From a virus (taxonomy: Duplodnaviria; Caudoviricetes), in the IMG/VR virus record IMGVR_UViG_3300022670_000151, positions 1 to 38,349 of that record: DNA of 38,349 nt; one strand, given 5' to 3'. Every line of letters starts with the position of its first letter. Within the stretch, counting starts at the first letter, position 1. Under the pieces are notes generated by a model that made no database searches, was not told the origin of the DNA, and saw only the letters and a list, made by a program, of their open reading frames with translations. Shown here in pieces: positions 4,433-38,078 of this stretch. Both the position numbers and the translations under genes were made by a program.

Positions 4433-4710
4433 TGTCTAAAAAAGCAAATGAAAAAGAAAGGAGTTTTCACAAAACAATTATGGACCAAGGCTGTTGCGTA
4501 TGTGGTGCACAAGCTGTTTTCCATCATGTTAATAGACCGATGCCACACCAACGCCGCGATCACACATGGGGTGCAGCACTTTGTCACCTTCACCATTCTA
4601 AGTTTCACGACAAGTTCGGAAATAATGACGAATTTTATAAAGCTTATGGCATCCAGTTAGAAGAGGAAGCTGGACACAACAAAAAGGAATATTGGGATGC
4701 TAACGCCTAG
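4432..4710 (+). CDS. HNH-like zinc-finger nuclease (Ref/DUF968-like)
   Basis: CCVCG...HH...RRDH...LCHLHH...H motifs. Confidence 0.7.
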
Positions 4711-5071
4711 ACAAAGCGACTTATTAAAATATATCGCTAGATACCAAGGCGAAAATGACGGGGTGTCGCCGTCCTTTGAACAAATGATGACCGAACTTAG
4801 CCTTCATTCTAAATCGGGTGTGCACAGGCTAATTAGCGGACTTGAGGAGCGTGGATATATTAGAAGGCTACATAACCGGGCTCGGGCAATTGCGATAATT
4901 ATAGACCCAGACGGGAATCCTCAAAACCAAACAACGGAGGACTTCTTAAGGGACGAAAATTTAGATCTAAAAAAACGCAATAAAGTTTTAGAAAAACGGG
5001 ACGACACTAATCAAACTTACATAATCAATCTTAGGAACCAATTGAACGAATTTAAGAGAAACTCCTATTAA
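4697..5071 (+). CDS. LexA DNA-binding-domain protein lacking the S24 peptidase domain
   Basis: MLT.RQ..LL.YI...PSF..M...[27 protein letters not shown] matches alphaproteobacterial LexA N-terminus; C-terminus is coiled-coil-like. Confidence 0.85.
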
Positions 5072-8306: not shown

Positions 8307-8663
8307 ATGTCTAACCCAGACCCTATTGATATCGCAGTCGGAAAACAATTGCGCCGTATTAGACGAATGAAAGACTTGTCACTAAATGAAGTGGGAGACG
8401 CTGTCGGCTTATCCTACCAACAAGTTCAAAAGTACGAACGCGGTGCTAATCGTATCTCAGCCAGTAAGCTGGTTCAGTTAGGCCGCTTTTTCAATGTTAA
8501 CGTTCAAGAATTTTTTGAACACGTTGACCAACCAGAAGAAGGCAAAACTGTGATGGATGATAACTCCATTAAAGCAGCCGCCCTATTCGCTAAAATGCCC
8601 GTGGAATATCAAATGCCTTTACGAGTATTTATGAAGGCCGTCGTCGATATCGCAGGCAAATAA
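8307..8663 (+). CDS. XRE-family HTH regulator (alphaproteobacterial PraR/PhrR-like)
   Basis: PDPID..VG..LR..R...LS...VG..VGLSYQQVQKYERGANRISASKL. Confidence 0.88.
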   Translation: MSNPDPIDIAVGKQLRRIRRMKDLSLNEVGDAVGLSYQQVQKYERGANRISASKLVQLGRFFNVNVQEFFEHVDQPEEGKTVMDDNSIKAAALFAKMPVEYQMPLRVFMKAVVDIAGK

Positions 8664-12785: not shown

Positions 12786-13952
12786 TTAAACAGCTACCTT
12801 CACAGTGCCGCTATCATTCCATAATGACCCTGTCGCACCGGCAGAGGTAGGGAGGTTCGCGAATATCTCGCCATTTTTAAGGATGGTAAAAAGATCACCG
12901 CCACCGCCACCGCCAGCAGCGGCTACACCAGTATGTAATTCAAACGCTACAGCGGTTGATGGATCATTATTGTTCGTATCAGTGTATATATGGGCTCCGC
13001 CTCGTGCAGCTAAGTCAAGAATTCCCGCAGTAAATGAATTGATAAATTCCCCGCCAGCAACACCGCCTAATTCCAACTTCTTGCCTTGGTTTAACGCTAA
13101 TATTTGAGCCAGTGCCGCTATGCCTGTGCTGTTATCAAAATGAAGAAAAACAGTCCCATTAGAGCGAAGCTCAATATCAAGACCTTTTGTGGCGTGGGCC
13201 TCTCCATATAGTATGATATTTGCGCCTGTATCCTTAGTGGTTGATGAACTAAGGTGAGTGGCTCCGTCAGGGTCGCCCCCCAAGATTTCAGGATTAGGAG
13301 CATTTAAATCAATATCGCCAGCCGTAAGCACAACGAAAGTAGGGCTATCAGTGGTATTCAAATCTTGGTCAAATGGGTTTTCAGATGTCCCCCAGAAAGC
13401 AGGCGATGAAACAGGGTCATTATTCAAGTTCGCAGCCTGAAGAGATTTGTATATTTGCCCATTAGAGCCAACGACACCACCATCACCAAGCGCATAAGTG
13501 ATATTAGGGTTCCAAGTACGTAAAAAAGACACTTGCTCCCAAAACGTCGCGGAAGCAATAGGATCGTTATTTGTATTGTTGTTTTGGAGGGACTTATAAA
13601 CCAATCCGTCAGAACCCACTACATAAGCACCGATTTCATACTCAACAATTGAATTCCAATCATCGAATGCTGCGCCTGACCCGAATGTTCCAACGTCGTT
13701 AATAGCCCAAATCTGCACGTCGTCAGAATCAGTCAAAATAGCCCGAGCCGTTCCCGCATAAAAAACATTAGGAAGACGACCGTCCCCAGTTAATAAAACA
13801 GGGTTTGCATTAGGGATTGTTTCGTTAACGTCGGCAAACGTATTTTTTGGAGTATCTGTTCCGCTTTCAAAGAAAAACATTTTCCCTGAAATTAAAGGAT
13901 CGCCAGCACTATCAAAAAATTGTGGGCGGGGATTTGAAAATCTACTGGTCAT
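12786..13952 (-). CDS. Tail fibre/tailspike with N-terminal head-binding domain and two CBM5/12-like repeats
   Basis: PRPQFFD..G.P...GK..F..SGT.TP..T..D.....PN.NPV.L...GR; repeats W.....Y..G..V.GS.G..YKSLQ..N.NNDP..S..FW. Confidence 0.82.
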   Translation of the reverse strand: MTSRFSNPRPQFFDSAGDPLISGKMFFFESGTDTPKNTFADVNETIPNANPVLLTGDGRLPNVFYAGTARAILTDSDDVQIWAINDVGTFGSGAAFDDWNSIVEYEIGAYVVGSDGLVYKSLQNNNTNNDPIASATFWEQVSFLRTWNPNITYALGDGGVVGSNGQIYKSLQAANLNNDPVSSPAFWGTSENPFDQDLNTTDSPTFVVLTAGDIDLNAPNPEILGGDPDGATHLSSSTTKDTGANIILYGEAHATKGLDIELRSNGTVFLHFDNSTGIAALAQILALNQGKKLELGGVAGGEFINSFTAGILDLAARGGAHIYTDTNNNDPSTAVAFELHTGVAAAGGGGGGDLFTILKNGEIFANLPTSAGATGSLWNDSGTVKVAV

Positions 13953-15495
13953 TTGTTTTTCCTTCAACTACACCAAAAGCCATCATTCTGGCTATGTTTT
14001 CAGCGGCCTCAGAACCAAAAGTTCCCAAAGCTTCTAAACGGTTTTTAATAACGACGGAACGGTTAGCACGTTTCCTATTTACACCCGAGCGAACCAAAGC
14101 CTGCACAAAGTCGGCGTTTGACTTCTTAATAGCGGCTGCGGAACTTCTGGCTATCTGGCCAGCTATTGGGGCACCAACGGCACCGGGGACGCCAACAACG
14201 GCTGCACCACCACCTGACCCTATAATAGAAGTAAGGGCGTTCTGCGGGGAAAACTTCGACAGGATATCAAGCACCTGCTCACCAGTGTTTCCTTTTGCTA
14301 CTTTTTCCATTGCGGAAAGCTCCTCACGATTGAAAAGGCGACTTTTCTTTTCGTTCCGAAGAATGGCAGCAAATTGGTTTCTAATGCTACGCGCGCCGGG
14401 GTTAGCAGCAAGGCCAGCGTCATTGATTGCTTTTGTCACAACTTCTGATTTTCTTAAACGCTGCCATAAATCACGCGCCTTCGTTAATTGTTCGCCACCC
14501 TTACGAGAATTTCCTGCGTTCACTTGGGACGGCTTAACCTTCAAAACGAATTCATCAACGCTATCACGCAATAAACGGGCTAAACGAGCGTCTGGGCGTT
14601 TGATTGATTGTGTGGCGTCACCAATTATTTTTCTAACTTCTTCAAGTTCGGTTAAGGTCACAACTTCTTTTTCACCCAAGGCGATAACTTCGTCAAAAGC
14701 TGCTCTTGTGTCAGGGTGTAATTTTTCATTAATACGCCCGACTTTTTTTTCAGCGGTTTTAATAAGTTTTTGCACACCAGCAGGCTTGAAAGAAACGCCT
14801 TCATTTTCAGCGGCTTTATATGCTGCGTTCGCTTCTGATCGTAAAACTTCCTCAGTCGGTGCTGCTGCCTTGATTTGTTTTTTAGTCAACGGGGTTTCAA
14901 CTACTTTCCGCTGTTTAGTCACCCTAATTTTAGGAAGCGCGCCGGCAGGAACTTGACCGCCAAGGAACAAGGCCGACTGATTAATAAACTCGGTAATCTC
15001 TTCGCGCGGTGCCCCTGTTACTTCTTCGACAATTTGCCCTGTCGCGTTGAATAATGACTGAATTCCTGAACCACCAACCGCCAAAGCAGCAACGCCGCCC
15101 TGTAAAATGTCTTTGGGAAGGCTTAATAGAAAACTGTTTTGCGCGTCTTCGGGTTTGTCTTCAAGGCCAAAATGTTCAAGCAATCCCTGAAAAGTCACGT
15201 CTAATTGTGCCGTCGGGTCTTCAGCTGTGCCAAAAGGCTCCGCTATTGCTTCGCCTAACCGTCCAACGCCAGCAAGAAAACCGCTTTCCTCTTGGGCTTG
15301 TGCTGCTTGACGGCCTTCGAATTGTTGAATGTCAGTCACGCGACTTCCTACGGTCCGCTGTTCCTCTCCCGGGAGAGTGGGGACGGGCTGTTCGTTGATG
15401 AATTTTTTAACAGCAGCATTAATGACGGTGTCTGGCGTCCCGTCAGGGAAGCTTAGAATTGTTCCGTCTGCTAGTTGTGCCTGAATATCAGCCAT
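13942..15495 (-). CDS. DNA ejection protein (P22 gp16 position)
   Basis: Last gene of ejection cluster; LADGT.L.FPDGTP N-terminal motif; helical, Ala/Gly-rich C-terminal hydrophobic segment. Confidence 0.7.
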   Translation of the reverse strand: MADIQAQLADGTILSFPDGTPDTVINAAVKKFINEQPVPTLPGEEQRTVGSRVTDIQQFEGRQAAQAQEESGFLAGVGRLGEAIAEPFGTAEDPTAQLDVTFQGLLEHFGLEDKPEDAQNSFLLSLPKDILQGGVAALAVGGSGIQSLFNATGQIVEEVTGAPREEITEFINQSALFLGGQVPAGALPKIRVTKQRKVVETPLTKKQIKAAAPTEEVLRSEANAAYKAAENEGVSFKPAGVQKLIKTAEKKVGRINEKLHPDTRAAFDEVIALGEKEVVTLTELEEVRKIIGDATQSIKRPDARLARLLRDSVDEFVLKVKPSQVNAGNSRKGGEQLTKARDLWQRLRKSEVVTKAINDAGLAANPGARSIRNQFAAILRNEKKSRLFNREELSAMEKVAKGNTGEQVLDILSKFSPQNALTSIIGSGGGAAVVGVPGAVGAPIAGQIARSSAAAIKKSNADFVQALVRSGVNRKRANRSVVIKNRLEALGTFGSEAAENIARMMAFGVVEGKTNDQ

Positions 15496-16651
15496 CAATC
15501 TGATTTCCTTTTTCATCAAATCTAATTACTCGACCACTTGGTGTCGGGCCTTGTTGCGGTGCGTCTGTTTCACCAGAAGCGGCTTGTTGTTGCACCGCTT
15601 TTAATCGATCTAATGACGCTATAATTAAATTCAAATTCTCTTTAAGTTGCTTTTCGGATTGACCGATTGACAAGTTTTGGACTGCGGACTGTAAGAAAGA
15701 CAATTCTTTTTCAGTCACTTGGCCCAAAGCCCCACCCGTAGGCGACGCTGCGCGCATTTTTGCCAATTCTTCAAAACCAAGCCTTGCCCGTGTTGTTTCG
15801 ATAAGGGCTTCGAAATCAGCTGATTCCGTTCCGGGGATAGTTGGGAATGCGGATTGAGGACCAACAGCGTCACTGAAACCGGGGTGTGTGAGTAATCTTC
15901 CAACAAGTGCCGATGTATCGGTAATGTTTTGGATAGACGCTGCTGCAGCGAGAGCTACTTTTTCTTCACCAGCCGCTGCTTTGACCTGTCGTTGTTGTGA
16001 CAATTCAGCTTTTTCACGGGCGGCGACACGGGGATCGCTTTCAACTTTACCTGTAAGGCTGCTGCGCTGACCAATGACGCGACCTTGATCGTCAGTGACG
16101 GGGCTAAATGTTTCTTGTGGTTTTGCCACTTGGGGCCTATTTAAAACGGTAATTTTGCCATTAGGTTCAACTTGTGCCGACGTGCCTGCTGGAAGTCCTG
16201 CCGTTGCAATTTCTTGCGGTGTCAAAGGTCGTGTTTTTGCTTGCGGTGCCTGAATAATCCCGGCCCTAGCAGCGTCTTCTAAACCTTCGTCAATTTCAGA
16301 ATTAAGGCGTTTCAGTGACTTCATATCACCGCTAATGGCTGCGTTTGTAATATCCAAAAGTTGCTGCGTGTCGGCAGGGTTTCCACCCAATTCAACAATA
16401 TTCGCGATTCTATTGCTTGCAAGTTCACGAACGCCGATTAGATCTTTTTTATCTAGCAAACGCCGGGCCCGTTGCAAGTCTTCGGCTAAAGCTTTTTGAC
16501 GGCCTAAATCTAATCTTTCTTCTTGCGCCCTTTGATTTGATAAAAATTGTTGACCTTGTCCGGCAACACCAGCACCGAAGGCTGATAAGCCACGGCCTAT
16601 CTTCTGGAATGTTGAAAGTTCTTGTCCGGGGACTTCGAATGCATGGGCCAT
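15488..16651 (-). CDS. DNA ejection protein (P22 gp20 position)
   Basis: Position; SPTGGALGQVTEKEL..LQ....L...QS..Q...NL motif. Confidence 0.7.
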   Translation of the reverse strand: MAHAFEVPGQELSTFQKIGRGLSAFGAGVAGQGQQFLSNQRAQEERLDLGRQKALAEDLQRARRLLDKKDLIGVRELASNRIANIVELGGNPADTQQLLDITNAAISGDMKSLKRLNSEIDEGLEDAARAGIIQAPQAKTRPLTPQEIATAGLPAGTSAQVEPNGKITVLNRPQVAKPQETFSPVTDDQGRVIGQRSSLTGKVESDPRVAAREKAELSQQRQVKAAAGEEKVALAAAASIQNITDTSALVGRLLTHPGFSDAVGPQSAFPTIPGTESADFEALIETTRARLGFEELAKMRAASPTGGALGQVTEKELSFLQSAVQNLSIGQSEKQLKENLNLIIASLDRLKAVQQQAASGETDAPQQGPTPSGRVIRFDEKGNQIDG

Positions 16652-18202
16652 TTAAAAAGCTCCTATTAATGTACCGATACCACCAGCGGCTTGTCCAAGG
16701 CCAGATAGAATGCCTTGTTTTGGTGCTAAACCGGGAAGACCGGGCAACGCAGCACTTTGCGAGGCTGAGCCTGTTGAAATATTAGCTAGCAGGGCGGCTA
16801 ATTGTTGAAGTGATCCACTTTGGTTCGCTCCTGACGATTGAAGCACGTTAGCGATGTTCCCTGTGCCTTGCGCAAGTCGATCTGCTACGCCTGTTCCTTG
16901 TGCATTAACTAACGCAGCCAAAGAACTTCCTGTGTCACCTACAGCGGAAGCTATACCCTCGCCTACGCGCGTGCGCCCACTTGCCAACTGTTGACCAGTA
17001 TTTAAGAACGCCTGACCTCCGAATTGTCCCGCTTGTTGTGCTTGTTGCGCACCGAACTGGCCTAAATTAGACGTAATCCCAGCCAGTGTTTCACCGACAC
17101 CCAAACGGGCCTGAGCCCCGAATTCCCCAGCACGTTGCGCTTGTTGTGCCCTAGATTGTCCGAATGCCGAAGCAAGGCTAGATAAATTTTGACCTGTTGC
17201 AATTTGGGCTTGACCACCAAGCTCTCCAGCCCTTTGCGCGACCTGTGAACGTTGTTGTCCAAACGTAGATTGCAAGTTAGATAAATCTTGTCCTGTTCCG
17301 AGAATAGCTTGACCCCCAAGTTCGCCAGCCCTTTGTGATTGCTGGGCCGCTAATTGACCTAAACCAGAAGTTATACCAGCCTGTTGTCCAAATAATCCCG
17401 CTTGCTGCCCTGAAGCACTAAGGCCAAGTTGTGACAAAGCCCCCAAACGATTAAATTGGTTTCCAAAATCTTGCTGCGCACGACCGAAAGCGCGCCTTTG
17501 TAGTTCCTCTTGAACTTCCCCACCACCAAGACCACCAGTTGCTGAGGCGTTCCTAAGAACGGCCCGTTCCTGCTCTTCTCGTAAAAACGCCTGTCCGGGG
17601 CTTTCGTTAAAGTTTTGGAAAGCTTGACGTTGTGCGTCTGGACCTAATGCGCCAGATTGTGCAGCCTGTGTATTAAATGCACCGACTCCACCTGAAGCAA
17701 AAGGGTCTAACCTAGCAACACCAGAACCTATTTGTTGACCAACATTTTGACCTGTGCGGAAAATATCGCCTCGGGATTGTGACAAACCTCGACCAAGTCT
17801 TGACAACGCTCCCTGTAGGCCTCCGCGTAAGGATTGGCCAGCCAAACCCTCAGCCTGTGATAAATCACCACGAGCGATATTTGCGCCCTGACCAATTGAA
17901 GATAAACCCGTTTGTAATCCGGTCCTTAAATTCTGGCCAGCTAATCCCTCAGCCGCGCCTAAGTCTTGTCGAGCAACGTCGGCACCAGACCCTAGAAAAC
18001 CCAACGCCTCTTGTAAGGCGGTGTTTAAATCTTGCCCGGCTATTTGCCTAGTTTGCGCGATATCGCCACGGGCAAGAGTTTGGCCTTGGGCTACTTGTTG
18101 CAACGCGCCCTGAAGTCCGCCCTGTAAAGCTTGCTCTGACCCTATTAATCCTGTGTCGGGAACATTAATAACTCGTCCGTCTGGTAATCTTTGTAAAGCC
18201 AT
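16652..18202 (-). CDS. DNA ejection/transfer protein (gp7-like) with 33-aa repeats
   Basis: G/Q/A-rich; SPG..F....ERAV.RNASATGGL.GG core; C-terminal GG.G.LIG.F. Confidence 0.75.
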   Translation of the reverse strand: MALQRLPDGRVINVPDTGLIGSEQALQGGLQGALQQVAQGQTLARGDIAQTRQIAGQDLNTALQEALGFLGSGADVARQDLGAAEGLAGQNLRTGLQTGLSSIGQGANIARGDLSQAEGLAGQSLRGGLQGALSRLGRGLSQSRGDIFRTGQNVGQQIGSGVARLDPFASGGVGAFNTQAAQSGALGPDAQRQAFQNFNESPGQAFLREEQERAVLRNASATGGLGGGEVQEELQRRAFGRAQQDFGNQFNRLGALSQLGLSASGQQAGLFGQQAGITSGLGQLAAQQSQRAGELGGQAILGTGQDLSNLQSTFGQQRSQVAQRAGELGGQAQIATGQNLSSLASAFGQSRAQQAQRAGEFGAQARLGVGETLAGITSNLGQFGAQQAQQAGQFGGQAFLNTGQQLASGRTRVGEGIASAVGDTGSSLAALVNAQGTGVADRLAQGTGNIANVLQSSGANQSGSLQQLAALLANISTGSASQSAALPGLPGLAPKQGILSGLGQAAGGIGTLIGAF

Positions 18203-19209
18203 TAGAAGGGGTTCCCTGTGCTAAATCCGCCGCCACCACCACCACTTAAACCTAGTGCGATGCGGGTTAATGCTGGAGGTGTTGTTTGAAGTTGTGGCGC
18301 GACCGTAAGCTGCTGAATAAATGAAGCTGGGTCAAAAATATCTTGTTTAGGTTCTAAAGATTGTAGAATAGCCTCAATAGGAGTCGGTGCTTGTGGCAAA
18401 CTTACGGCTTGCGGTAGGCTTGCCACTTGTGGAACAGCAGCCGCTTGCTCTGCTATTTTATTTAAAACAAACGGGTTCGTTATATTGCCGCCAATAGGCA
18501 AGTTGGGCGTCGTATTAAAATGCTGCAGATCGTCAAAATCAGAAGACACGGTTTGAAAGTTCCCAATGTTATTATTGATAAAATCATTAACCGCTTGCAC
18601 CTGCGGAGTGATAGACGTGTCCCCAAAACTTGTAGGGTCAAAAATATCGCCAGCAGGTTCGGCTATCTGGTCAGGACTTATAGGTGGTCTTGACGTCGCG
18701 GGTGTTGTCTGAAAAATAGAACCTCGTCGATCATTAGAAGGCTGTCCGCCACCACTAAACAAGTTAGCTATGTCGTTTAATGATGTCTGCCCACCAGCAG
18801 GAACGGCAAACGGATTATTCGCAACAGGGCCCTGAACATTTTGTAAAAATGATGTGTCCGCGTTGATTGTCTGTGGTTGTAATGCTGAAAAATCAGTCGG
18901 AAGACCCAATAAAGCAGCCCGGATCAATGGCAGGGTGTCTGCGGTAATTTGCTGGGCCCCTACATTCCCTTGTTGAAATGCTTGTATTTCCGCAGGAATT
19001 CCTTGTCCTAAAATACCTAATGCGCCTTGAAAACCTTGTTGCGAAACGTCTAAAGCTTCTGGGAAAATACGTTGAACGTCACCACGAGCCTGAAGTGTCG
19101 CACGGTTAATTTCCGCTTGACGCGCCCGGTTATCCTGTTGCGTTGTCGCTAGGCTTTCTTCTGAGGCTTTGGATGTACCACCGCCGAAAATGCTTGAAAA
19201 GATACCCAT
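18202..19209 (-). CDS. Putative ejection/pilot protein
   Basis: MGIFSSIFGGG N-terminus after AGGA RBS; Q/P-rich; TAATG-coupled to next gene. Confidence 0.65.
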   Translation of the reverse strand: MGIFSSIFGGGTSKASEESLATTQQDNRARQAEINRATLQARGDVQRIFPEALDVSQQGFQGALGILGQGIPAEIQAFQQGNVGAQQITADTLPLIRAALLGLPTDFSALQPQTINADTSFLQNVQGPVANNPFAVPAGGQTSLNDIANLFSGGGQPSNDRRGSIFQTTPATSRPPISPDQIAEPAGDIFDPTSFGDTSITPQVQAVNDFINNNIGNFQTVSSDFDDLQHFNTTPNLPIGGNITNPFVLNKIAEQAAAVPQVASLPQAVSLPQAPTPIEAILQSLEPKQDIFDPASFIQQLTVAPQLQTTPPALTRIALGLSGGGGGGFSTGNPF

Positions 19210-19317: not shown

Positions 19318-19566
19318 TTAAACCAAAATCCAACCGAACCGATCATCACCCGCGCCGTCGTCAGCGTCGCGTTTCACATAAAGAATATTTCCAGCAGTCC
19401 CCGCCGTATCCATATAAAACCGCGTAGGAAGAGATTTGAATATTCCCTCAGGTGAACCAGTGCCGGTTAGGATTTGCAAATTCGTTAACGTATCGATCCA
19501 AATAAGCATTTCTGAGGTCGTATCGCCGTTTTCATCAACTATATTTCGTGGGGGTGCTGGTATCAT
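19318..19566 (-). CDS. Small tail protein at the P22 gp26 (needle/plug) position
   Basis: ATGA-coupled to gp10-like gene; GTGSPEG...FY.D..G..G.ILYVK...GW module. Confidence 0.6.
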   Translation of the reverse strand: MIPAPPRNIVDENGDTTSEMLIWIDTLTNLQILTGTGSPEGIFKSLPTRFYMDTAGTAGNILYVKRDADDGAGDDRFGWILV

Positions 19567-21023
19567 TTGATGTTTGCCTCCAGTTTAATAAAGACTTTTC
19601 TAACCTTATCGCTCATTACCCACCTAAACGATTCCATGCGCGGAACACGGCCCTGACGACGCCAAATAGCGCGCCTTCCAAATTCGCCAATTTTACCGAC
19701 GCTCCGAGTAATACCGTCAGACCACGTCTTCCCGTCCTTGCTTCTAAGCATTGTTATTTTCGGGTCAGGAACTTCGGCGTTACCTACACCGCTTTCCAGC
19801 GTTAGCTCAATCGAAGGGACAAAAATAGGATCGCCAATATTAGAAAACGGCAACGTCGAAAATTCTGTAATTATGTTCTGGCCATATTCATCATAAAAAT
19901 CTAGGTCAAGCTCACCGACGCGGCCGTCGATACTATCGCCAACAAGAATGCGCCCATAAGCTTTGACAACGCTATTTACCCGATACCTGAATTCGGTCGC
20001 GACATCTTCCACAATGTCAAAACTTTTCCGTTCGTGCCATTTCTTAGAATTCAACTCATAGACTAAAGTTGTTGTTGGTAATGTGAATCCGACAAACCGA
20101 TCACCGCCTTGTGAATAAGCCCAACCAAAGACATTCCTTAACTGCGTTTCAGTTAACTTACCTAGGAGATCGTCTATTGCGTCTGTGGATATTGGAGCGA
20201 ACCTTGACCCTGTAAATCCGTAAATACTTGGTTCGTCATTCTTGCCACCACCAACAAAGAAAAATGTTTCTTGTGCGTTTATTAAAGAAAATGGGGATTT
20301 AACACCGATATTCAAAACGCCACCCTGAATGCGTATAAATGGGAAGCCTGCGCCCACGGTAGCCCCAGCATTACGGAATGGCTCGAAGGTATCGGCACCG
20401 CCAATGTAAACGATGTTATCTTGAACGATTGGGGCCTCGATTGTGTCGGGGTCGGCTTCCGCAGTTCCGAAATCAAGGGCATTATATGCAAGGCCATTAT
20501 TTAGAGCGGAAATAATAAATTTCTTTGTATCTGTTGTGAAAAGGAAGTAGCCGTCTATATAAACAACGTGCTGAGGGTTGCCGTTGGCAGTGAAAGAAGC
20601 GTCTACAATTTCGGTCAACGTGCCCGGCTCTAAAAAAATATAACCTTTACCGCCGGGGGAAAGAATACAAAGCTGGGTGTTGTTGTTTGCCATGCTAACG
20701 CGGCCCTCGCCTTCAATCGTTCCCAAATCAGATACAGTAAAACTTTCAACGCCCTGCGCGCTAATTATCTGGTTTAAACGATAAAGGTTAGTCCCATTTA
20801 CAAAATAAGGGATGCCGTTCATTACGTGCGCCCCTCGGTTTGCTTGTTGTTGTATCCCGCTTGTCGCCAATTGGTGCGCGCCGGGTGTTCCGAAGAGGCT
20901 TTCGTTTGCCAATCCCCCGCCTTGGTTAATGTGGACATAGGCGTTCTTGCACATCTGAGACGAAATAGGAAGACTTCGGCTGACGTAAAAACCGCCTGTT
21001 ATGGGTAATTGAGTTCTAGGCAT
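19563..21023 (-). CDS. P22 gp10-like tail hub / packaged-DNA stabilisation protein
   Basis: LFGTPG, RGAH, YIDGYFLF, F.TAEADPD, W.YSQGG..F, WHER, W.R.GR; beta-propeller-like. Confidence 0.88.
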   Translation of the reverse strand: MPRTQLPITGGFYVSRSLPISSQMCKNAYVHINQGGGLANESLFGTPGAHQLATSGIQQQANRGAHVMNGIPYFVNGTNLYRLNQIISAQGVESFTVSDLGTIEGEGRVSMANNNTQLCILSPGGKGYIFLEPGTLTEIVDASFTANGNPQHVVYIDGYFLFTTDTKKFIISALNNGLAYNALDFGTAEADPDTIEAPIVQDNIVYIGGADTFEPFRNAGATVGAGFPFIRIQGGVLNIGVKSPFSLINAQETFFFVGGGKNDEPSIYGFTGSRFAPISTDAIDDLLGKLTETQLRNVFGWAYSQGGDRFVGFTLPTTTLVYELNSKKWHERKSFDIVEDVATEFRYRVNSVVKAYGRILVGDSIDGRVGELDLDFYDEYGQNIITEFSTLPFSNIGDPIFVPSIELTLESGVGNAEVPDPKITMLRSKDGKTWSDGITRSVGKIGEFGRRAIWRRQGRVPRMESFRWVMSDKVRKVFIKLEANIK

Positions 21024-22609
21024 TAATTAATCCTAATTGACGACTTATTAACCGTTAAGTTCACATTATCGGAGTTATTTTCTATAAATAATTCAATGAA
21101 ATCAGTAGGGGCAAATTCCAATTGCCACATGATAGATGTTGATTTCGGATCATTGGAAGAAACTTTATTTTTACCGTTGGCATTCGGCACTATCACTCCG
21201 TTTTTAAATAAGTGAATTGTTATATCTTTATTGGTGCCCGAGACGGATTCAATTGTTGCCGCAATACTAATAGGCAACGTGGCATTTTTAACGCCGGTAT
21301 AAGTAAGCCTTCCCCCCGCTGTAACGATGAACTGGCTTATTGTTGGCTCTAGGGTCCAAACACCTGTGACAAGAACGGGAGTGTTTACAGTCGCGATAAC
21401 TGTATCGGTCGGCGTGTTGAAGCTAGTCAAAGCGTCAGGCCGTGTATCAGGAATGGTATTATTTAAAGCAAACTGCCATTGATTATCATCTGAGGTAATG
21501 CCTGATAGAGCGGCTCCCGCGCCCGATTGTATAACGTCTTGAATGGTCGCAAAACCACCAGCGTTAATATTTGCAGAAGCAGCCAATCCTGAAACCATTG
21601 TTGCACCAGAGTCAATAAATGGAAATGATGTAGTAAGGGAAAATCCGTCAAATGTAGCTGTTCCAAGGTCCAAGAATTTTCCTGCAGAAAGATTAACAAG
21701 GTTGCCAGTAGCAAGGAAAATACCATGCGCACCAGTGAACAAAAGTCCCGTTGTAGGCAAGCTATCAAACGAAACGTTGTTCATTTGAGACCCTCTTAAA
21801 GCATCCCATGTTCCAATTGATAAACAATCTTTGACGGTCATGTCTAACATTTGGAAAATACCAGTTCCCCCGCCTTGAATACTGGTAAGGGTCCCGGTGG
21901 GACAAGACAATTTTATTTTGGTAATTTTGCTAGCATTTCCGATATCCGTTATCATTACCCCAACGCCAGTATAGGTAAGTTGAATAAGGCTACTATCTGC
22001 CGCAGAAATTAAATTTCCGTTTAAGACGAGCCTATCAGTTCCGATATCAACGTCAGCGGTAAATAAATAATTTATGTCGGCGACAAGATTTATCACGCCA
22101 GCCACAGGTGGTGGTAAATCTGCCTTAACAGCGATGACAACTGTTTTTGTTGAGGCCGGGATGCCTGTTACAGATATTTGAATTTCGCCGGGGGTTCCTA
22201 CAATATTAATTCCAGAACCAGCTACCAATGAACGGAAAACCGCTGAGGAAGCCAAAGGGTCGTCAACAAGTGCTGTACCATCGTCGTTAAATGAAAAGTC
22301 GGTAGATATCTCGACACAATTATCGTCGTTAATTTCAATGAAAATACCAAAGCCATTTTTAAGATTGCGAATACCTTTAATAGAGCCTTGGTCGTCAAGG
22401 ATAGGAACACATAGGGCGTCGCCCACCTGAATAATGGAACCAGTCACGCCTAAAGCAGTTAAAAGGTCGGCAATAGTGATTTTTCTATTTTCGTTGTTGG
22501 TAACAAAATCGAAGGTCGTATCAGCAGGAATATTTTGAATGCCAACGAACTTACTTTTTTTAATACCGCGACGGCGTCGGTTTGTTGCGTTGTTGTCATC
22601 ACCAGACAT
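21023..22609 (-). CDS. Putative structural/receptor-binding protein (beta-rich core, C1q/TNF-like C-terminus)
   Basis: Lies between gp4-like and gp10-like genes; FRSLVAGSGINI fibre-like motif; terminal LFKNG...L...DFIELFIEN. Confidence 0.6.
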   Translation of the reverse strand: MSGDDNNATNRRRRGIKKSKFVGIQNIPADTTFDFVTNNENRKITIADLLTALGVTGSIIQVGDALCVPILDDQGSIKGIRNLKNGFGIFIEINDDNCVEISTDFSFNDDGTALVDDPLASSAVFRSLVAGSGINIVGTPGEIQISVTGIPASTKTVVIAVKADLPPPVAGVINLVADINYLFTADVDIGTDRLVLNGNLISAADSSLIQLTYTGVGVMITDIGNASKITKIKLSCPTGTLTSIQGGGTGIFQMLDMTVKDCLSIGTWDALRGSQMNNVSFDSLPTTGLLFTGAHGIFLATGNLVNLSAGKFLDLGTATFDGFSLTTSFPFIDSGATMVSGLAASANINAGGFATIQDVIQSGAGAALSGITSDDNQWQFALNNTIPDTRPDALTSFNTPTDTVIATVNTPVLVTGVWTLEPTISQFIVTAGGRLTYTGVKNATLPISIAATIESVSGTNKDITIHLFKNGVIVPNANGKNKVSSNDPKSTSIMWQLEFAPTDFIELFIENNSDNVNLTVNKSSIRIN

Positions 22610-22614
22610 AAGAT

Positions 22615-23094
22615 TTATTCCTCTACGGTTCCAGATTCAAGGCCGATAATCCCTGCGGCTTCGGCTAAAATTTCGGCTTCAAGATTGGGATAATAACGGC
22701 GCGAAACTCCGCAGCCATGATTTCCTGACCCAACGGGCAACGTGCCGGGGAATGCACTTACAATAGAACCAACACCAATCCTGCGCATGGCCTTCAATCC
22801 GTCCCGCGCTGACTTAACGGTGAAAGCACCAGCCTCGCCCCCGTAATCACTAACAAGGTCTAGAGCCACATTATAAATGCAGCCACGTAATGCACCTGAA
22901 GGGATTGTCACGTCGTCCCCAAGGTCGGTCACTTCGGTATAGCCAAGGTTCACACCTTCAGCGGCTAGACCTAACATGTAATTATTCATGGTGAAAATTG
23001 CGTCTTTGAATTCGGCAGGCTCCAGAGCGGACTCCGAAGCCTGAACCAAAATTGCTTGCAACGAAGCTTTCAAGACTTGCGCTGCTGTAGCCAT
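22615..23094 (-). CDS. P22 gp4-like head-to-tail adaptor
   Basis: L...E..DA...MN..M......G..LGY, YN.AL.L..DYG, P.TLPVGSGN motifs. Confidence 0.82.
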   Translation of the reverse strand: MATAAQVLKASLQAILVQASESALEPAEFKDAIFTMNNYMLGLAAEGVNLGYTEVTDLGDDVTIPSGALRGCIYNVALDLVSDYGGEAGAFTVKSARDGLKAMRRIGVGSIVSAFPGTLPVGSGNHGCGVSRRYYPNLEAEILAEAAGIIGLESGTVEE

Positions 23095-23368: not shown

Positions 23369-24637
23369 TTAAGGGCTACCGTATGCAAGACCCGCATAAA
23401 GTTGGTTCATTGCGCCAAACGCCGGGCGAATATCGAGACGAACTTTCTGCTCGTTCGCGTCACCGTTTGAATACTTGCTTACCCGCAACATAAGACCATC
23501 TGCAGACTTGGCCAGCGTATCGGTTGCATGTAGTTTTTCCATATCAACAAAACCAATACCGTAGGCGTCACGATGCCAGAATAAACTAGGTTTGTTAACC
23601 GTGGAAGCCGCGCCCAATAAGGTAACAATGTCGCCACCAATGGGGGCACTATCAGCCGTATTGTAAGCACCCGGCGATACTTCGAAGATGGCGGGGCCTG
23701 TTACGATGATTGTACCTTCGCCCGAGCCGTCTAGTGTAACGTCTGCGGTGACGGTGCCTGTCCAAATAATCTGCGCGCCCGTCTCATCGGTGGCAGCTTG
23801 ACGTGTCGCACGGTTAATGCGGAAACGTCCCGTAATTTGGATAACTTCGCCGGCTTTAATCTCAAGGCCAATACCGAAGCTGGCTAGAGCTAAAGCTTGC
23901 GTCATTGTGTCTTTGGCTCCGACATACGTCACGATAGGGCTGGAGTCTAAAACACCAACACGGTCGGCAACGGCAGAAGACACATAAGAAGTTAGACTGT
24001 CCGCGGTCATAACCTTCATACCTGCCTGATTTTCATTAATAACGGCAGTCTCACTTGCTTTTGTAACTTGAGGATTAACACCCAAAGAACGCTGCTCGGT
24101 TGCTAGTGCCACTTGTGAAAATGGATCTAAAGCGAAATTCCACTGACCTTTAGGAACACCAGTTTCGGCCATTAAAGCACCTGCTCGGGCTATTTCTTCC
24201 CAGCTATTTACTTTGTTGTCCGGGGTGCCTGAAAGCAAACCAGCGTTGTTACGCATAAATAAAGCGAAGTTTGTTTCTAGCTTGGTCACGATTTCAATCG
24301 CGGCGTCGTCAAAGAAACGGTTGATGTCGGAACCCATCTCAAGAGCTTGTTTCGCTTCGCTGAATTTTAGCGGAACGGTAATATAGTCTTGGACTGTTGC
24401 GGGTGCTTTGCCGGTGATGATATCGCGGTGTGAGCCTGAGATATCGCCGTCTGAGGTTTCAACTGGCAAGTAGCGTGTTGGTCGTTTCAAGAAGACCGTG
24501 TCACCACTATCGGCGTCAAATTCGCCAGCTAGAAATTGTGTGTTTACATTTTTGGAAAGGACGCGATTGGCTTCAACACGAGCCAAAACTTTCATGGCGA
24601 CCTTTTCGGTGAAATTGCTGTCAAAACTATTAGCCAT
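23369..24637 (-). CDS. Major capsid protein (P22/Sf6 coat family)
   Basis: MAN...SN, SGDTV..KRP.RY, I.TGKA.ATVQDYITV, LFWH.DA; 422 aa; followed by terminator. Confidence 0.92.
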   Translation of the reverse strand: MANSFDSNFTEKVAMKVLARVEANRVLSKNVNTQFLAGEFDADSGDTVFLKRPTRYLPVETSDGDISGSHRDIITGKAPATVQDYITVPLKFSEAKQALEMGSDINRFFDDAAIEIVTKLETNFALFMRNNAGLLSGTPDNKVNSWEEIARAGALMAETGVPKGQWNFALDPFSQVALATEQRSLGVNPQVTKASETAVINENQAGMKVMTADSLTSYVSSAVADRVGVLDSSPIVTYVGAKDTMTQALALASFGIGLEIKAGEVIQITGRFRINRATRQAATDETGAQIIWTGTVTADVTLDGSGEGTIIVTGPAIFEVSPGAYNTADSAPIGGDIVTLLGAASTVNKPSLFWHRDAYGIGFVDMEKLHATDTLAKSADGLMLRVSKYSNGDANEQKVRLDIRPAFGAMNQLYAGLAYGSP

Positions 24638-25576: not shown

Positions 25577-27775
25577 TTAAGTTCCTCGTTGCCCGTCGAT
25601 AATCATACCAGCTTGGTTAGCGTGTGCGCCAAGCCCTGCGGGAGTTACAACCTCAACCCTAGCCCCCAACCCTTCACGTATTTTTTTGAAGGTATCGGCA
25701 GTAATATTTTGGTTTTTAATCTCGTCATTTGTTAATTCACGATTAAGATTTGCGAAATCCATTGTTTCTTTGTGCGCTTGTTCGGCAGCATCAAGACCTA
25801 ATTTAAACTCTTTTTCACGGGCCGTTAATGCTTGCTCTTGACCTTGTAAATCAAGTTTATTCTGGGCCTGTTGAAGTTGGGCAATCTTAACTTGAAGTTC
25901 ATTATCAGCTTTTTGTGTGTTGAGTTGGATTTGTTTTAACCCATTTTCAGCCTTCATGATTTCGGCTTGACCCAACAATTCGTCGCCGGTTGGCTCCTTC
26001 GGTTGGGCTTCGGCTTCGGCTAATTGTTGTTGTTCTTCGGGTGTCAATTGATCTTGCGGAATCAGACCTTGATTAAGAAGTTGTTGTCTTGCACGGTCCG
26101 CGATCTTATCGGTGCCGGGGCTAGAAACATTTTTAAGAAGCACGTCTAAACCAAGGGAAGCTGTCTCGGGTGCTATTTGTGCAAGTTCCGTAATAGCGGC
26201 CACGGTTTCGGATTGGCGACTATCGAAGGACGGTCCAGCTTTACAAGTCACGTCATACTTGCCGTCGCTTAAATCGTTCAACGTAACTTCTTCGCCTGTC
26301 TCTTCGTCTAACACAACTTCCTTAATCGTTTCCATTTTGAAGGTGCCGTCTTCGTTCATGATACGAACCTGACGATTAGTGTCATAAACAATCGGGATAG
26401 CATCAACGATTAGCTTCGCGGTGTAACAGATAGAAATTTCTAAGGACGTAAAATATTTACTTGTTATGTTGTTGCCTTTTGATTGAAGTTTTTCGATTGC
26501 AACACCAGACTGCGCGTTCGGATTATCGCCCATGCCAGCCTCGAAGATACCCGAAATCCCCGACATAATGTTTTGCATACCGTCGCTGATAATACGAAGG
26601 CCGGGATTGATAGCGGCCCCGCCGATAACGAATGGTGGGGGAACCGCTTCTTCTGGGTCGTGGTTGTAATATTGCACGGCGTCCATGTTGGTATTTAGTG
26701 TTGCCAATGTGTCCTCATGTCCAGCCGCTTGAATTTCAGTCATAAAGATTTTAGACCGTGGGGCTAACGCGCCTTCTTCGATTTCACGTGACAATGAATA
26801 GTTTAAGATACGTTGCGGGTCTTTTAATTTACGTACCGCGCCTTGGTATTGTATCTGGCCCTCGATCACCTTGAAGTTACCATAACAAACCACAAGGGGA
26901 ATATTACTAAACGGAGTTTCTTCTTCTTCACCAAGCCACTTCCCGCCGTCGTATTTACGCATCATGAACCGACTGTCCATTATATCCCGACGCTTTTCGA
27001 TTGGGTCGCCCATCCTAGCTAAATCGTCTTCAACCTTCTTCAAATCATCATCGGCGATAAACACACGCCCGAACTTAGTTTGAACTAAAGTTCTTTTTGT
27101 AAGCTTGCGATAATACAAGTGTCCGATTGTTATCGTGTCATCGTCCCTACAAATATCGCTGGTGGTTGTGTCCCCATTAGAAACACTTAGGCCGCTTCCG
27201 TCTGGGAAGGTTTCGTTATATTCGTTCGTTGGTAGTTGGGACAATAGATGGCCCCAATCTGAATCAGCCTTATCTTGGCGTTGTGCCCCGGTATCAAACC
27301 ATACACGCCTATCGAAGTTATGAATGGCTTTGACAAGGATATCTTGTTCGAAGCTCATGTCGTCCACTTCTTCGGCTACCAACATCCAGCCGTCAATACC
27401 AGCCGTCGCTACATTGCGCCCTGCTTGTGAATAGATTGTTGAAGCGTTTGAAATGGTTTCGATATTACGAACTAGACCGTCAATGAACTGCGCCTTTTCC
27501 TTTGTCGCTTCGCCGCCCGTTGGTTTGATATTGATATCGAAGTCAGCCTTTTCAATTGCCCCAGCTATTTGGTCAATGATTGGACTTGTCATGTCGAACG
27601 TGTACTTCGGCTTTTCGTTATCGTCGGCAATAGCAGAGACGTGGTCCTCCCATTGGCCATCTTCTAACGTGACGAATAGGTGATCTTCTTTGGCTAGGTC
27701 CCGATTTTCTTTATCGGCGTCTTGTGCTTGTTCAAGTAATTTTAGGGCGGTCTTGTGTTCGCTAAAGTCAGGCAT
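25577..27775 (-). CDS. Portal protein (P22-like, with C-terminal coiled-coil barrel)
   Basis: GQW, G.VR.LKDPQR..NY..S, SGVAI..LQ..G, GKYDV....GPSF.SR; Q-rich helical tail; start coupled to TerL stop. Confidence 0.93.
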   Translation of the reverse strand: MPDFSEHKTALKLLEQAQDADKENRDLAKEDHLFVTLEDGQWEDHVSAIADDNEKPKYTFDMTSPIIDQIAGAIEKADFDINIKPTGGEATKEKAQFIDGLVRNIETISNASTIYSQAGRNVATAGIDGWMLVAEEVDDMSFEQDILVKAIHNFDRRVWFDTGAQRQDKADSDWGHLLSQLPTNEYNETFPDGSGLSVSNGDTTTSDICRDDDTITIGHLYYRKLTKRTLVQTKFGRVFIADDDLKKVEDDLARMGDPIEKRRDIMDSRFMMRKYDGGKWLGEEEETPFSNIPLVVCYGNFKVIEGQIQYQGAVRKLKDPQRILNYSLSREIEEGALAPRSKIFMTEIQAAGHEDTLATLNTNMDAVQYYNHDPEEAVPPPFVIGGAAINPGLRIISDGMQNIMSGISGIFEAGMGDNPNAQSGVAIEKLQSKGNNITSKYFTSLEISICYTAKLIVDAIPIVYDTNRQVRIMNEDGTFKMETIKEVVLDEETGEEVTLNDLSDGKYDVTCKAGPSFDSRQSETVAAITELAQIAPETASLGLDVLLKNVSSPGTDKIADRARQQLLNQGLIPQDQLTPEEQQQLAEAEAQPKEPTGDELLGQAEIMKAENGLKQIQLNTQKADNELQVKIAQLQQAQNKLDLQGQEQALTAREKEFKLGLDAAEQAHKETMDFANLNRELTNDEIKNQNITADTFKKIREGLGARVEVVTPAGLGAHANQAGMIIDGQRGT

Positions 27776-29241
27776 TATTTTTTCCATCCACGTGATTGAA
27801 GCTTCTTAGCTTTTTTCTTTTGTATCGGTGGTGCGAACAATGACATCATGACTGAGTCGCTTTCGTTGGGACTATCAATCCCTAGCTTCTTCATGTCGAC
27901 CTTTGACATTATTTGTTCTAACCCTTGACCGTTGGGCTTACGTGGAATCCGGCAAATCTGAGACCGTAGCCCTGTAATATCATCAATTCCCGCACAATTC
28001 AAACTTATCATTTCGTCGGGGTCAATGTACTTCCCTTGTTCGAGGGCCTTATATGCGTTTTCAAATCGGTCCGCTAAGTTGATATAGAACTGCGCGCGAT
28101 TGTTTTTAAATACTTCTTTGTACTTGCGTGGCTTGTCCCGTGATTGGTCTTCGTCTTCGATTGCCATGTATGGAAGTTCGGCGTTGTCTTGTCCGCTACC
28201 CGATAGGCTACCCTTGAACATATGGAACTTGGTTGGCTTACCTTCGAAGGCCGTTGATACTTGACGACGTAACCCCGCGCCCATCCCGTCACCGTCCCAC
28301 ACGAACCAGTCAGCCTTGTCATTGATTGCGTGGTCAGTTGCCCAATCACACACCTCGTCGATTAGTCCGCTTCGTTTGCTATCAACCCTTGTGATTATGT
28401 TTCCATGTCGGCAGGCATAACCCCCGGCGTCGTCGCCATCATCGAACGGGTCATGTGCGGCTATGATTGCCCCATGTGGAACGAAGGCTTCTTTAAACTT
28501 GGGGTTAAGGTGAAGGTCTTTGGCTGCGTCAAACCATTCGGGAAGTATGATTGAATTCTCGACGCTATCATTGAACGCACCTTCCCATATGTGGTCATAC
28601 TTGGCTCGGGTCATGGTTGCCTTATCGTGAAGTCGAAGGGCGTTTTGTGTTTCGTTCCACCACGGATTATCACGCCAGTTCAACTTGATAATCATGTGCA
28701 TGTCGTCTTCATAGAACCCGTCGCGTTCAAGTTCTTTGTGAAAGGGCATGATAAACTTCTGACTAAAGGGGTCGCCGCTTGATTGTGGGTTAGCGGTGAA
28801 CCAACACTCCGCACCGGGTATGCGTAGGATAGTTGGAAGCAACGTATCAAGTGACAATTGGCTGGCCCTTTGTGCTTCTTCGTACCATCCGTATTTAAAA
28901 TTATGTAATGATTGAAGGCCCGTCGCGTTACGTGCTGCCCCTATATACTTTGTTCGTGCCCCGTTGGGTGCAATGATTTGACGTTCTTGTATGTTCCAAT
29001 TGCTTAGACATAAACGTTCGGTCACGCTTTCCTTAAGAACACTATGCACGGAGTCATCAATGGACGCTTGGAATTCACGAAGGCACATGATGTTTGCGGC
29101 TTCACTTGCCATCTTCAAGGCCATGATATCACTAACACCGATTGACTTACCCGAACCACGACCACCATATATAATTTTGAAGGGCTTATGCACGGTCATG
29201 AACCGCTTAAGTTTGCTATTGATACGAAGATTTACAGCCAT
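27775..29241 (-). CDS. terL: Terminase large subunit (PBSX/Sf6 type)
   Basis: Walker A GGRGSGKS, CLREFQ.SI.DSV, WYEEAQ, NP, HIWEG, nuclease HDP...SPN..D; start at 29241. Confidence 0.95.
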   Translation of the reverse strand: MAVNLRINSKLKRFMTVHKPFKIIYGGRGSGKSIGVSDIMALKMASEAANIMCLREFQASIDDSVHSVLKESVTERLCLSNWNIQERQIIAPNGARTKYIGAARNATGLQSLHNFKYGWYEEAQRASQLSLDTLLPTILRIPGAECWFTANPQSSGDPFSQKFIMPFHKELERDGFYEDDMHMIIKLNWRDNPWWNETQNALRLHDKATMTRAKYDHIWEGAFNDSVENSIILPEWFDAAKDLHLNPKFKEAFVPHGAIIAAHDPFDDGDDAGGYACRHGNIITRVDSKRSGLIDEVCDWATDHAINDKADWFVWDGDGMGAGLRRQVSTAFEGKPTKFHMFKGSLSGSGQDNAELPYMAIEDEDQSRDKPRKYKEVFKNNRAQFYINLADRFENAYKALEQGKYIDPDEMISLNCAGIDDITGLRSQICRIPRKPNGQGLEQIMSKVDMKKLGIDSPNESDSVMMSLFAPPIQKKKAKKLQSRGWKK

Positions 29242-38052: not shown

Positions 38053-38078
38053 TTTGTAAATTCCTTTGTTGTTTTCGC

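Follow-up and report, generated by a model that had tools for sequence, protein, structure and literature searches.

The DNA-ejection proteins gp7, gp20 and gp16 of bacteriophage P22 are the closest known counterparts of the proteins analyzed here. P22 gp7 and gp20 are packaged in a disordered state in the portal and tail lumen and then fold into a dodecameric helical channel, according to the available text of a recent study (bioRxiv 10.64898/2026.09.03.749273). The amino acid composition of these proteins is not discussed in the available portions of the P22 sources (bioRxiv 10.64898/2026.09.03.749273; PMC8402733; PMC8954989). Selection against chemically reactive residues has precedents in other settings. 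In MS2 and echovirus exposed to ClO2, reactive residues of host-binding or entry proteins were exchanged for stable ones, as reported in the available text of both studies (PMC5632658; PMC6007107). Met replacement slows the oxidative inactivation of enzymes (PMC4414599), and low Cys and Tyr accompany oxygen tolerance across whole proteomes (10.1101/2024.03.22.586313). The locus described here differs from both kinds of precedent. As far as their available text goes, the ClO2-evolved viruses acquired a few point changes in the laboratory under a disinfectant with no deamidation component, in contrast to a near-complete natural purge over whole proteins. The oxidation-hardened examples are engineered single enzymes or weak whole-proteome trends, whereas the depletion seen here is almost total and centred on virion proteins. 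In the literature searched, which covered topics other than Asn-Gly (NG) and Asp-Gly (DG) avoidance in virion proteins, no comparable report came up.

The window, meaning the whole 38,349-nt stretch of viral DNA analyzed, carries a four-gene block (E1 to E4) predicted to encode the DNA-ejection proteins of a P22-like phage. All genes listed lie on the minus strand. A P22-like portal (25577..27787; PF16510), a P22/Sf6-type coat protein with 9 Tyr (23369..24637; PF11651), a gp4-like head-tail adaptor (22615..23094; PF11650) and a gp10-like tail hub with 16 Tyr (19563..21023; PHROG 578, PF11134) are all present, with Pfam matches above curated cut-offs. The coat protein also matches PDB 7sp4/5l35, annotated as 'gene 5 protein' and presumably from Sf6. 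The hub anchored the survey of relatives and the tree, and the large terminase (27775..29241; PF04466) served as a non-virion control. A 528-aa tail protein (21023..22609) contains only 3 Tyr, and a 388-aa tail fibre or spike (12786..13952; 8 Tyr, 6 Trp) adjoins the ejection genes on their downstream side. As in P22, the ejection genes come after the gp10-like hub. Neither a gp26 tail needle nor a gp14 between the hub and the gp7-like gene was recognized in the window, where just E1 and an 82-aa ORF with no family match separate the hub from E2. A DUF2824/GNAT gene is present in many relatives.

E2 (16652..18202; 516 aa) matches PHROG 598 'DNA ejection' (E 3.5e-12), and a profile of the surveyed E2 set matched P22 gp7 at 49.5 bits, with strong composition bias in that match. 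These comparisons support gp7 homology; the E2 profile matched no solved structure. E3 (15488..16651; 387 aa) is the putative gp20-like protein, based on a match of residues 214-366 to PHROG 2534 'released from the phage upon host infection' (E 1.3e-14) and on its position after the gp7-like gene; HHalign against BTP1 gp20 and a profile comparison with P22 gp20 were not significant. E4 (13942..15495; 517 aa), which follows the gp20-like gene, is a candidate gp16-like protein that matches Phage_P22_gp16 in Atlas features (0.94, 168 shared). HHalign of E4 against BTP1 gp16 and a profile comparison were not significant, its best PHROG is labelled 'major head protein', and its top Foldseek matches are uncharacterised phage proteins (mean pLDDT of the query model, 54). 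E1 (18202..19209; 335 aa, Gln-rich) is probably an extra ejection protein with no identified P22 counterpart. Its composition and position fit the ejection block and a family alignment could be built; PHROG and Pfam gave no match. A weak Atlas lead connects E1 to P22_gp7 (0.89), and HHalign of E1 against the gp7-like set was negative, leaving a gp7 paralogue unsupported. This fourth Gln-rich gene sets the window apart from P22. The same four-gene block is found in Pseudoalteromonas phage vB_PspP-H6/1 (KX257490), the closest cultured relative (hub 44% identical), a seawater isolate that differs in holding 2.2% Tyr and 2.8% Met in E1-E4.

Translation of the ORFs reproduced exactly the counts on which the original prediction was built. 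The 1,751 residues of E1-E4, start Met left out, comprise 1 Tyr, 1 Trp, 0 Cys, 5 Met and 5 His, along with 70 Phe. E1, E2 and E3 are entirely free of Tyr and Trp, as had been stated. E1 also has no Cys or Met, one His, and neither NG nor DG; E2 has no Cys, Met or His and a single Lys; E3 has no Cys, two Met and two His. The sole Tyr and Trp of the block, E4 Tyr226 and Trp344, are invariant in 5/5 aligned homologs and lie in the better-predicted helical domain of the structural model. All five residues are depleted relative to the 43 other listed ORFs (9,120 aa; binomial P: Tyr 2e-16, Met 5e-13, His 3e-10, Trp 2e-9, Cys 6e-9). The claim that flanking proteins are normal does not fully hold, given the Tyr-poor 528-aa tail protein and the Tyr-reduced shell proteins of Tyr-free phages. 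A fairer baseline is provided by homologous ejection proteins, pooled from Tyr-rich relatives. Tyr (1 vs 42.5 expected, P 9e-18) and Met (5 vs 45.0, P 3e-14) are still strongly depleted by this measure and Phe is raised (70 vs 43), but Trp (4.6 expected, P 0.056), His (2.9) and Cys (0.0) are not significantly depleted. In antisense and in the two remaining sense frames of E1-E4, the same triplets are about as frequent as in shuffled sequence. The depletion is thus no DNA-level effect, which rules out DNA-motif or codon avoidance. Low complexity does not explain it either, since the entropy of E1-E4 is 3.5-3.9 bits, compared with ~4.0-4.1 for coat and hub, and homologs equally rich in Gln, Gly and Ala hold ~3% Tyr.

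The signature consists of two layers. Scarcity of Cys, His and largely Trp is an ordinary, family-wide property of P22-like ejection proteins: P22 gp7, gp20 and gp16 contain no Cys, 0-3 His and 1-3 Trp, much like the window, and the same holds in 19 named phages. Strong NG and DG avoidance is likewise usual for the family, P22 included. Loss of Tyr, largely to Phe, and of Met forms a second, lineage-variable layer that is not ordinary; P22 gp7, gp20 and gp16 hold 11, 11 and 15 Tyr and 4, 17 and 15 Met. The original interpretation, which counted Cys, His and Trp as part of the signal, is not supported as stated on this point. The gp7-like protein has three conserved Tyr columns, which are 35-80% Tyr across 90 Tyr-rich loci; in the 36 Tyr-free loci these columns contain no Tyr and are 82% Phe, bearing out the anticipated Tyr-to-Phe replacement. 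Met-to-Leu, the expected counterpart, did not predominate among the small number of columns that could be aligned. One locus (L016) is Tyr-free yet Met-rich.

NG and DG, sites of fast spontaneous deamidation and isomerisation in flexible chains, fall further below expectation than any other scored dipeptide in E1+E2 of both groups. Observed over expected counts are 8/110 for NG and 8/61 for DG in Tyr-free loci (151 dipeptides scored) and 63/335 and 51/201 in Tyr-rich loci (275 scored), while GN, SG, TG and QG occur about as often as expected or more often and Asp-Pro is not avoided. The window itself has 5 NG+DG compared to 17.1 expected (P 6e-4). P22 shows the same tendency (NG 3/11, DG 2/7), and NG avoidance is absent in T7 (13/8) and P-SSP7 (10/10). 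T7 gp16 is globular in storage, according to the available text of PMC8954989. NG is lower in Tyr-free than in Tyr-rich E2 (0.03 vs 0.18) and also in E3, E4, portal, coat, hub and tail; it is equal in E1 and higher in the Tyr-free scaffold. Per locus, NG+DG avoidance does not follow Tyr% (rho 0.04, n 95), and DG was not lower in the Tyr-free proteins of a separate 120-protein set (0.19 vs 0.14). Both dipeptides form turns, and long helices may disfavour them regardless.

The Tyr-free state was found in 36/141 related loci, a proportion that overstates prevalence because alignments A2, A6 and A7 drew mainly on Tyr-free relatives; among hub- and coat-anchored loci alone it is 12/74. Three of 144 loci (L162, L168 and L170) had been dropped for doubtful E2 calls. 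A tree of 100 dereplicated hubs requires at least 12 switches of Tyr state, eight of them forced by starred branches, and the count is the same when Tyr/Phe and Met/Leu are merged. The coat tree requires 11, nine of them forced. Module swapping could inflate such counts. A single-clade origin, suggested by a first tree with 8 Tyr-free rows and 2 changes, was overturned by wider sampling. Distant phages from one source dataset share Tyr state: among same-dataset pairs with hub identity <70% (one pair lacking a measured identity), 8 were both Tyr-free, 15 both not and 2 discordant. Permutation gave an expectation of 16.8 discordant of 34, and 0/5,000 permutations were as low as observed. Tyr-free phages range from 38 to 57% GC, and no non-virion gene cluster was both confined to and common in the 16 Tyr-free genomes (16 vs 7 genomes compared), which fits several hosts; an accessory gene common to Tyr-free phages was accordingly rejected among these clusters.

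Reduction of Tyr extends beyond the ejection proteins in a graded manner. The groups are defined by E2, making its own group value circular. Comparing Tyr-free with Tyr-rich phages, Tyr is 0.00 vs 3.35% in E1 (21 vs 74 sequences), 0.29 vs 2.33% in E3, 0.42 vs 1.87% in E4, 1.40 vs 2.92% in the 528-aa tail protein family, 2.08 vs 3.17% in coat, 2.31 vs 3.25% in portal (Met 2.6 vs 3.7%) and 2.94 vs 3.97% in hub, a drop of 25-50% in shell and tail proteins. Terminase is unchanged (3.11 vs 3.11%; 7 vs 8 sequences), as is a gp14-like protein of the same gene cluster (3.54 vs 3.65%; 25 vs 50). A C-terminal S74 chaperone domain of ~70 aa holds 2-5 Tyr and 2-3 Trp where the mature part of the same ORF has no Tyr (24/36 homologs in which the domain could be delimited). 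Tyr thus falls in shell and tail but not in terminase, the gp14-like protein or the cleaved chaperone domain, implying that the completed particle is the main target of selection. The scaffold, a protein missing from mature virions, is also Tyr-reduced (1.95 vs 2.61%, p 0.006, group p-values ignoring kinship). Outside virion genes, Y/(Y+F) is 0.45 vs 0.50 (p 0.036; 16 vs 6 whole genomes, one Tyr-rich genome with <500 aa left out), with p 0.085 when 3 genomes having unassigned head genes are removed. Tests on 6-8 independent pairs never ran in the wrong direction for hub, coat, E3 or Met and stayed below significance (median p 0.06-0.63); portal ran opposite in 0.5 pairs on average. Shell Trp (0.94 vs 0.98) and His (0.76 vs 0.85) are not reduced, and some Tyr columns of coat and hub are lost to Trp or His, so there is no blanket avoidance of oxidisable residues.

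The original prediction of selection on these ejection proteins is supported, and its second suggestion, damage in long-lived virions, fits best. We consider it somewhat probable (about 0.55) that Tyr and Met loss age-proofs disordered, unrepaired proteins kept in long-waiting virions, habitat being known for the window only. Selection would remove chemically fragile residues from ejection proteins during long waits between hosts, when these chains would sit disordered inside the particle, beyond repair. Damage as slight as one tyrosyl cross-link, one Met sulfoxide or one isoaspartate kink could kill the virion, since a damaged chain would have to thread a ~30-Å lumen and co-assemble with 11 partners; the folded shell would tolerate more damage. 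Where persistence is longest or oxidation slow, probably in sediments, Tyr and Met would be purged as the last dispensable targets, and buried residues such as E4 Tyr226 would be kept. The one listed run that contains the window comes from a marine sediment metagenome, which may be its source; no RNA run was listed as containing it. Decay at NG and DG is slow and oxidant-independent. It needs time and no oxidant, which favours this ageing explanation.

A habitat-specific, phenol-selective chemistry could instead strike virions, such that the Tyr purge follows from dose and not from waiting time, and NG/DG avoidance is separate and older; candidates include iodine or bromine halogenation, nitration, phenol oxidases and oxidation driven by Mn/Fe oxides. 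The Tyr-specific shell shift, with Phe rising and Trp and His untouched, the clustering of Tyr state by dataset and the independence of NG+DG from Tyr% per locus all agree with it. It is nonetheless unlikely, as the purge is strictest in proteins that are predicted to lie protected within the capsid, Tyr-free phages have less NG in seven of their virion proteins too, and no one candidate oxidant stands out. Oxidation, cross-linking or modification of Tyr in the host outer membrane or periplasm, whether anti-phage or incidental, is considerably less probable again. Strictness declines from E1/E2 to E3 to E4, the outside-to-inside order in the P22 channel; three Tyr-free phage contigs lie within one Thalassospiraceae-labelled MAG, and two window regulators chiefly match alphaproteobacterial plasmids. 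However, coat and portal lose Tyr though never in the periplasm. This parallel drop in coat, portal and hub makes the periplasmic defence first proposed insufficient alone, and NG/DG avoidance, at sites whose decay calls for no oxidant, is equally unexplained by it. Tyr-free phages also span a wide GC range with unrelated replication genes, and the DnaB of one is weakly closest to a gammaproteobacterial DnaB (41%). Searches with DnaB, RecT and DnaA-C gave no firm host. A prophage search of 301 genomes of the MAG's order matched two, the MAG itself and one distant hit, and a P22-like hub close to the Tyr-free group was absent in the 300 other genomes. The 19 named records out of 207 hub matches included no cultured Tyr-free phage with a known host, and the E2 query matched only H6/1.

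Tyr-to-Phe replacement as a biophysical adaptation unconnected with chemical damage, whether for hydrophobic packing or membrane insertion or to cold or pressure, is similarly improbable. Phe is up where Tyr is down, hydrogen bonds of P22 gp7 Tyr in the channel make another packing solution conceivable, and long helices alone may keep NG/DG low. Such adaptation does not predict the joint loss of Met, nor counts of exactly zero along hundreds of weakly conserved residues that are probably disordered (E1 tails, E2 N-termini), and proxies for thermophily and acidity differ little. Translation supply, amino acid cost, DNA-motif avoidance or low complexity would accord with slightly lower non-virion Tyr and Cys in Tyr-free genomes, yet Tyr is retained both in the S74 domain encoded by the same ORF and in the neighbouring gp14-like gene. 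These controls rule out tRNA supply or cost, and the within-ORF comparison largely refutes this whole set of causes. Phe is about as costly as Tyr, the triplets show no anomaly in other frames and the window has no tRNA genes, making these causes very improbable.

If ageing of stored proteins is the cause, ejection proteins may carry a shelf-life signature. It is possible, though somewhat less probable than the ageing of these proteins itself, that many unrelated lineages, on entering long-persistence habitats such as marine sediments, have repeatedly stripped their injection proteins down to an ageing-proof alphabet that excludes Cys, His, Trp, Tyr and Met as well as Asn-Gly and Asp-Gly, and that virion longevity depends on how fast the stored disordered proteins decay chemically and is predictable from sequence. 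Sequence offers few ways to approach what limits the span of phage infectivity, or whether viruses of sediments are adapted to waiting long for a host. A purge that is near-absolute, repeatedly switched and dataset-linked, with controls in the same gene and operon, offers a direct test. It suggests that the virion is weakest in the disordered proteins it stores, and such a residue purge could mark viral lifestyle in metagenomes.

Across the four consecutive predicted ejection genes of the window, E1 to E4 (minus strand; 18202-19209, 16652-18202, 15488-16651 and 13942-15495), the original prediction counted 1 Tyr, 1 Trp, 0 Cys, 5 Met and 5 His, and a recount over the 1,751 residues of the translated ORFs returned exactly these numbers. 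Codons for the missing residues occur at roughly their shuffled frequency in the other reading frames, so the depletion acts at the protein level. In 19 named phages, none of which has Tyr-free ejection proteins, these proteins contain 0-0.07% Cys, mostly <0.7% His (maximum 1.8%), 1.5-2.9% Tyr and 1.3-3.7% Met; the core proteins of T7 and P-SSP7 are likewise almost without Cys. Each P22 ejection protein has no Cys, 0-3 His and 1-3 Trp, yet 11-15 Tyr. Against this family baseline, the depletion in the window is confined to Tyr (P 9e-18) and Met (P 3e-14): this half of the predicted list is exceptional, whereas the other half is ordinary for a family in which P22 is also low in Cys, His and Trp. 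The single Tyr and single Trp of E4 are each invariant in 5/5 homologs and lie inside a better-predicted helical domain. Lys is also almost missing from gp7-like proteins (window 16652-18202 and homologs), at 0.46% in Tyr-free and 1.25% in Tyr-rich phages.

The window is one virus record of 38,349 bases, whose minus strand encodes a P22-type virion module by PHROG and Pfam matches: terminase, portal, scaffold, coat, gp4 adaptor, a 528-aa tail protein and gp10 hub, then the four Gln/Gly/Ala-rich genes and a fibre. E2 (516 aa) is gp7-like by a PHROG match and a profile match to P22 gp7. Position and one supporting match each make E3 gp20-like and E4 gp16-like, direct comparisons with gp20 and gp16 being negative. 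E1, an additional gene that shares this composition and lacks a firm homology match, is possibly a plug or another subunit of the channel. A Gln-rich extra gene of this type precedes the gp7-like gene in aquatic relatives (window 18202-19209; L022 10543-11061), and the gp26 needle is seemingly missing from this family. An antisense frame of 369 codons over E4 (13847-14956, plus strand) is probably a shadow. Elsewhere, the window encodes a LexA-type DNA-binding domain protein without a peptidase match, two Cro/C1-type HTH proteins and a stand-alone DnaA C-terminal-like protein (4697-5071, 8307-8663, 36265-36687 and 37870-38085), and no integrase among the ORFs scanned. A His-rich (24) 675-aa protein of unassigned function (5089-7116) matches PHROG 1735 (E 4e-263) and no Pfam family. 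Two small regulators have matches chiefly in alphaproteobacterial plasmids, and the host is likely alphaproteobacterial. The sole listed sequencing run containing the window, flagged as its possible source, is a marine sediment metagenome.

The depletion proved more general than predicted. Relatives were gathered through hub, coat and E2 anchors, together with the 19 named phages, and classed by Tyr content of mature E2 as Tyr-free (<0.3%), Tyr-rich (>=1.5%) or intermediate. Among 141 loci, 36 were Tyr-free, 15 intermediate and 90 Tyr-rich; the 74 with a hub or coat anchor alone gave 12, 8 and 54. A query-biased search with a Tyr-free profile found 65 proteins lacking mature-part Tyr among the 120 of 414 matches listed. 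Conserved E2 Tyr columns are 82% Phe in the aligned Tyr-free group, confirming the anticipated Tyr-to-Phe substitution. At the column of P22 gp7 Tyr92, which is hydrogen-bonded in the channel structure according to the available part of bioRxiv 10.64898/2026.09.03.749273, the window residue is apparently Gln on a profile alignment. Tyr and Met losses can be uncoupled, since E1/E2 of one locus (L016 3251-5083) are Tyr-free yet Met-rich. Another (L050 6490-7533) carries, between E1 and E2, a fifth ejection-region ORF (347 aa) that is devoid of Tyr, Trp, Cys, Met and His. Tyr-free ejection genes also lie beside head genes outside P22-type portal/coat clusters in three genomes (G311, G313, G318; L315-L318, L327-L328). 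A MAG labelled as Thalassospiraceae includes, through either infection or mis-binning, three related contigs of Tyr-free phages (G002:C2, C218, C254; L117, L118, L139, L140), of which one measures 37.5 kb, and a bacterial genome of the same order carries a distant gp10-like hub (L294, G212:C1 219362-223618).

In Tyr-free phages, E1, E3 and E4 are also near zero in Tyr, while portal, coat, adaptor, tail and hub lose 25-50% of theirs and gain Phe; shell Trp and His are not reduced. Tyr content does not differ between the groups in terminase or in the gp14-like protein, which is encoded between the hub and E1 genes and which we take to be non-virion after P22. Many E2 homologs end in an S74 chaperone domain, a type that is cleaved off, and where it could be delimited it retains Tyr/Trp while the mature part is Tyr-free (24/36 cases). 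The presence of this domain suggests that S74-bearing gp7-like proteins self-cleave ahead of packaging. The domain (PF13884) is flagged in 39 of the 120 of 414 gp7-like homologs listed (P0007, P0009 and others), and further examples end in it (L022 11062-12138; L309 9769-10680). In whole genomes (16 Tyr-free, 7 Tyr-rich), shell Y/(Y+F) is 0.31 (13 genomes) versus 0.47 (7), and non-virion Y/(Y+F) 0.45 (16) versus 0.50 (6). Scaffold Tyr is also lower in Tyr-free phages, which together with the small non-virion shift counts against a purely virion effect.

Hub trees require at least 12 switches of Tyr state, of which well-supported branches force 8, and merging Tyr with Phe and Met with Leu leaves this requirement in place; for the coat tree the numbers are 11 and 9. 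These are quick LG+G4 trees with long branches, in which switch direction was not inferred and module exchange is possible. Independent-pair tests agree in direction, with too few pairs to reach significance. Among distant phages sharing a dataset number (45 loci, 18 datasets), only 2/25 pairs are discordant, a value as low being reached in 0/5,000 permutations, so that the state is shared far beyond chance, although separate datasets may come from common campaigns. None of the non-virion gene clusters is diagnostic of the Tyr-free genomes (16 versus 7 Tyr-rich). The state common within datasets and the lack of such a marker point to habitat or community rather than a single host gene.

A second signature concerns Asn-Gly (NG) and Asp-Gly (DG), the classic dipeptides at which flexible chains spontaneously and rapidly deamidate or form isoaspartate. 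In E1+E2 of Tyr-free and Tyr-rich phages alike, no other dipeptides fall as far below expectation, while Gly-Asn, Ser-Gly, Thr-Gly and Gln-Gly occur about as often as expected or more often; helix preference may be an alternative explanation of the scarcity. The window (13942-19209) has 5 NG+DG against 17 expected. Avoidance is seen in P22 (L357 9369-13313) and absent from the S74 domain and from T7 and P-SSP7 core proteins. This fits the packaging of P22 gp7 and gp20 as disordered chains in the portal/tail lumen (bioRxiv 10.64898/2026.09.03.749273, in part) and the globular storage of T7 gp16 (PMC8954989, in part). In Tyr-free phages, NG is lower still in seven virion proteins, barely reduced in terminase and unreduced in E1 and scaffold; across individual loci, NG+DG is uncorrelated with Tyr% (rho 0.04).

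The simplest account covering both layers, the family-wide scarcity and the additional loss of Tyr and Met, is chemical age-proofing, to which we assign a probability of about 0.55; that composition governs damage, that damage makes ejection fail and that habitat sets the waiting time are its inferred links. Packaged ejection proteins could be neither repaired nor replaced, and would probably lie unfolded beside the DNA, a step resting on the available part of PMC8402733. They would then have to thread a lumen of ~30 Å and co-assemble into 12-mers, as the P22 channel indicates (bioRxiv 10.64898/2026.09.03.749273, in part). Reactive intermediates target Trp, Tyr, His, Met and Cys (PMC7064263, in part). 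The family as a whole has already dispensed with Cys, NG/DG and most His and Trp, and on this account lineages of certain habitats have additionally shed Tyr and Met and cut shell Tyr. Environmental chemistry selective for phenols is a distinctly weaker candidate. Attack in the host envelope and biophysical adaptation both seem doubtful, and supply or cost very improbable.

Literature searches, which missed most subscription papers, found no prior report of such a purge; the available parts of bioRxiv 10.64898/2026.09.03.749273 make no mention of oxidation or deamidation, and those of PMC8954989 none of tyrosine, cysteine or amino acid composition. Loss of Tyr and Met is a labile trait, tied to source dataset and weakly extended over the whole virion, and it goes along with avoidance of NG/DG, an ageing motif that is independent of oxidants. 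The purge is a new property of an already known module.
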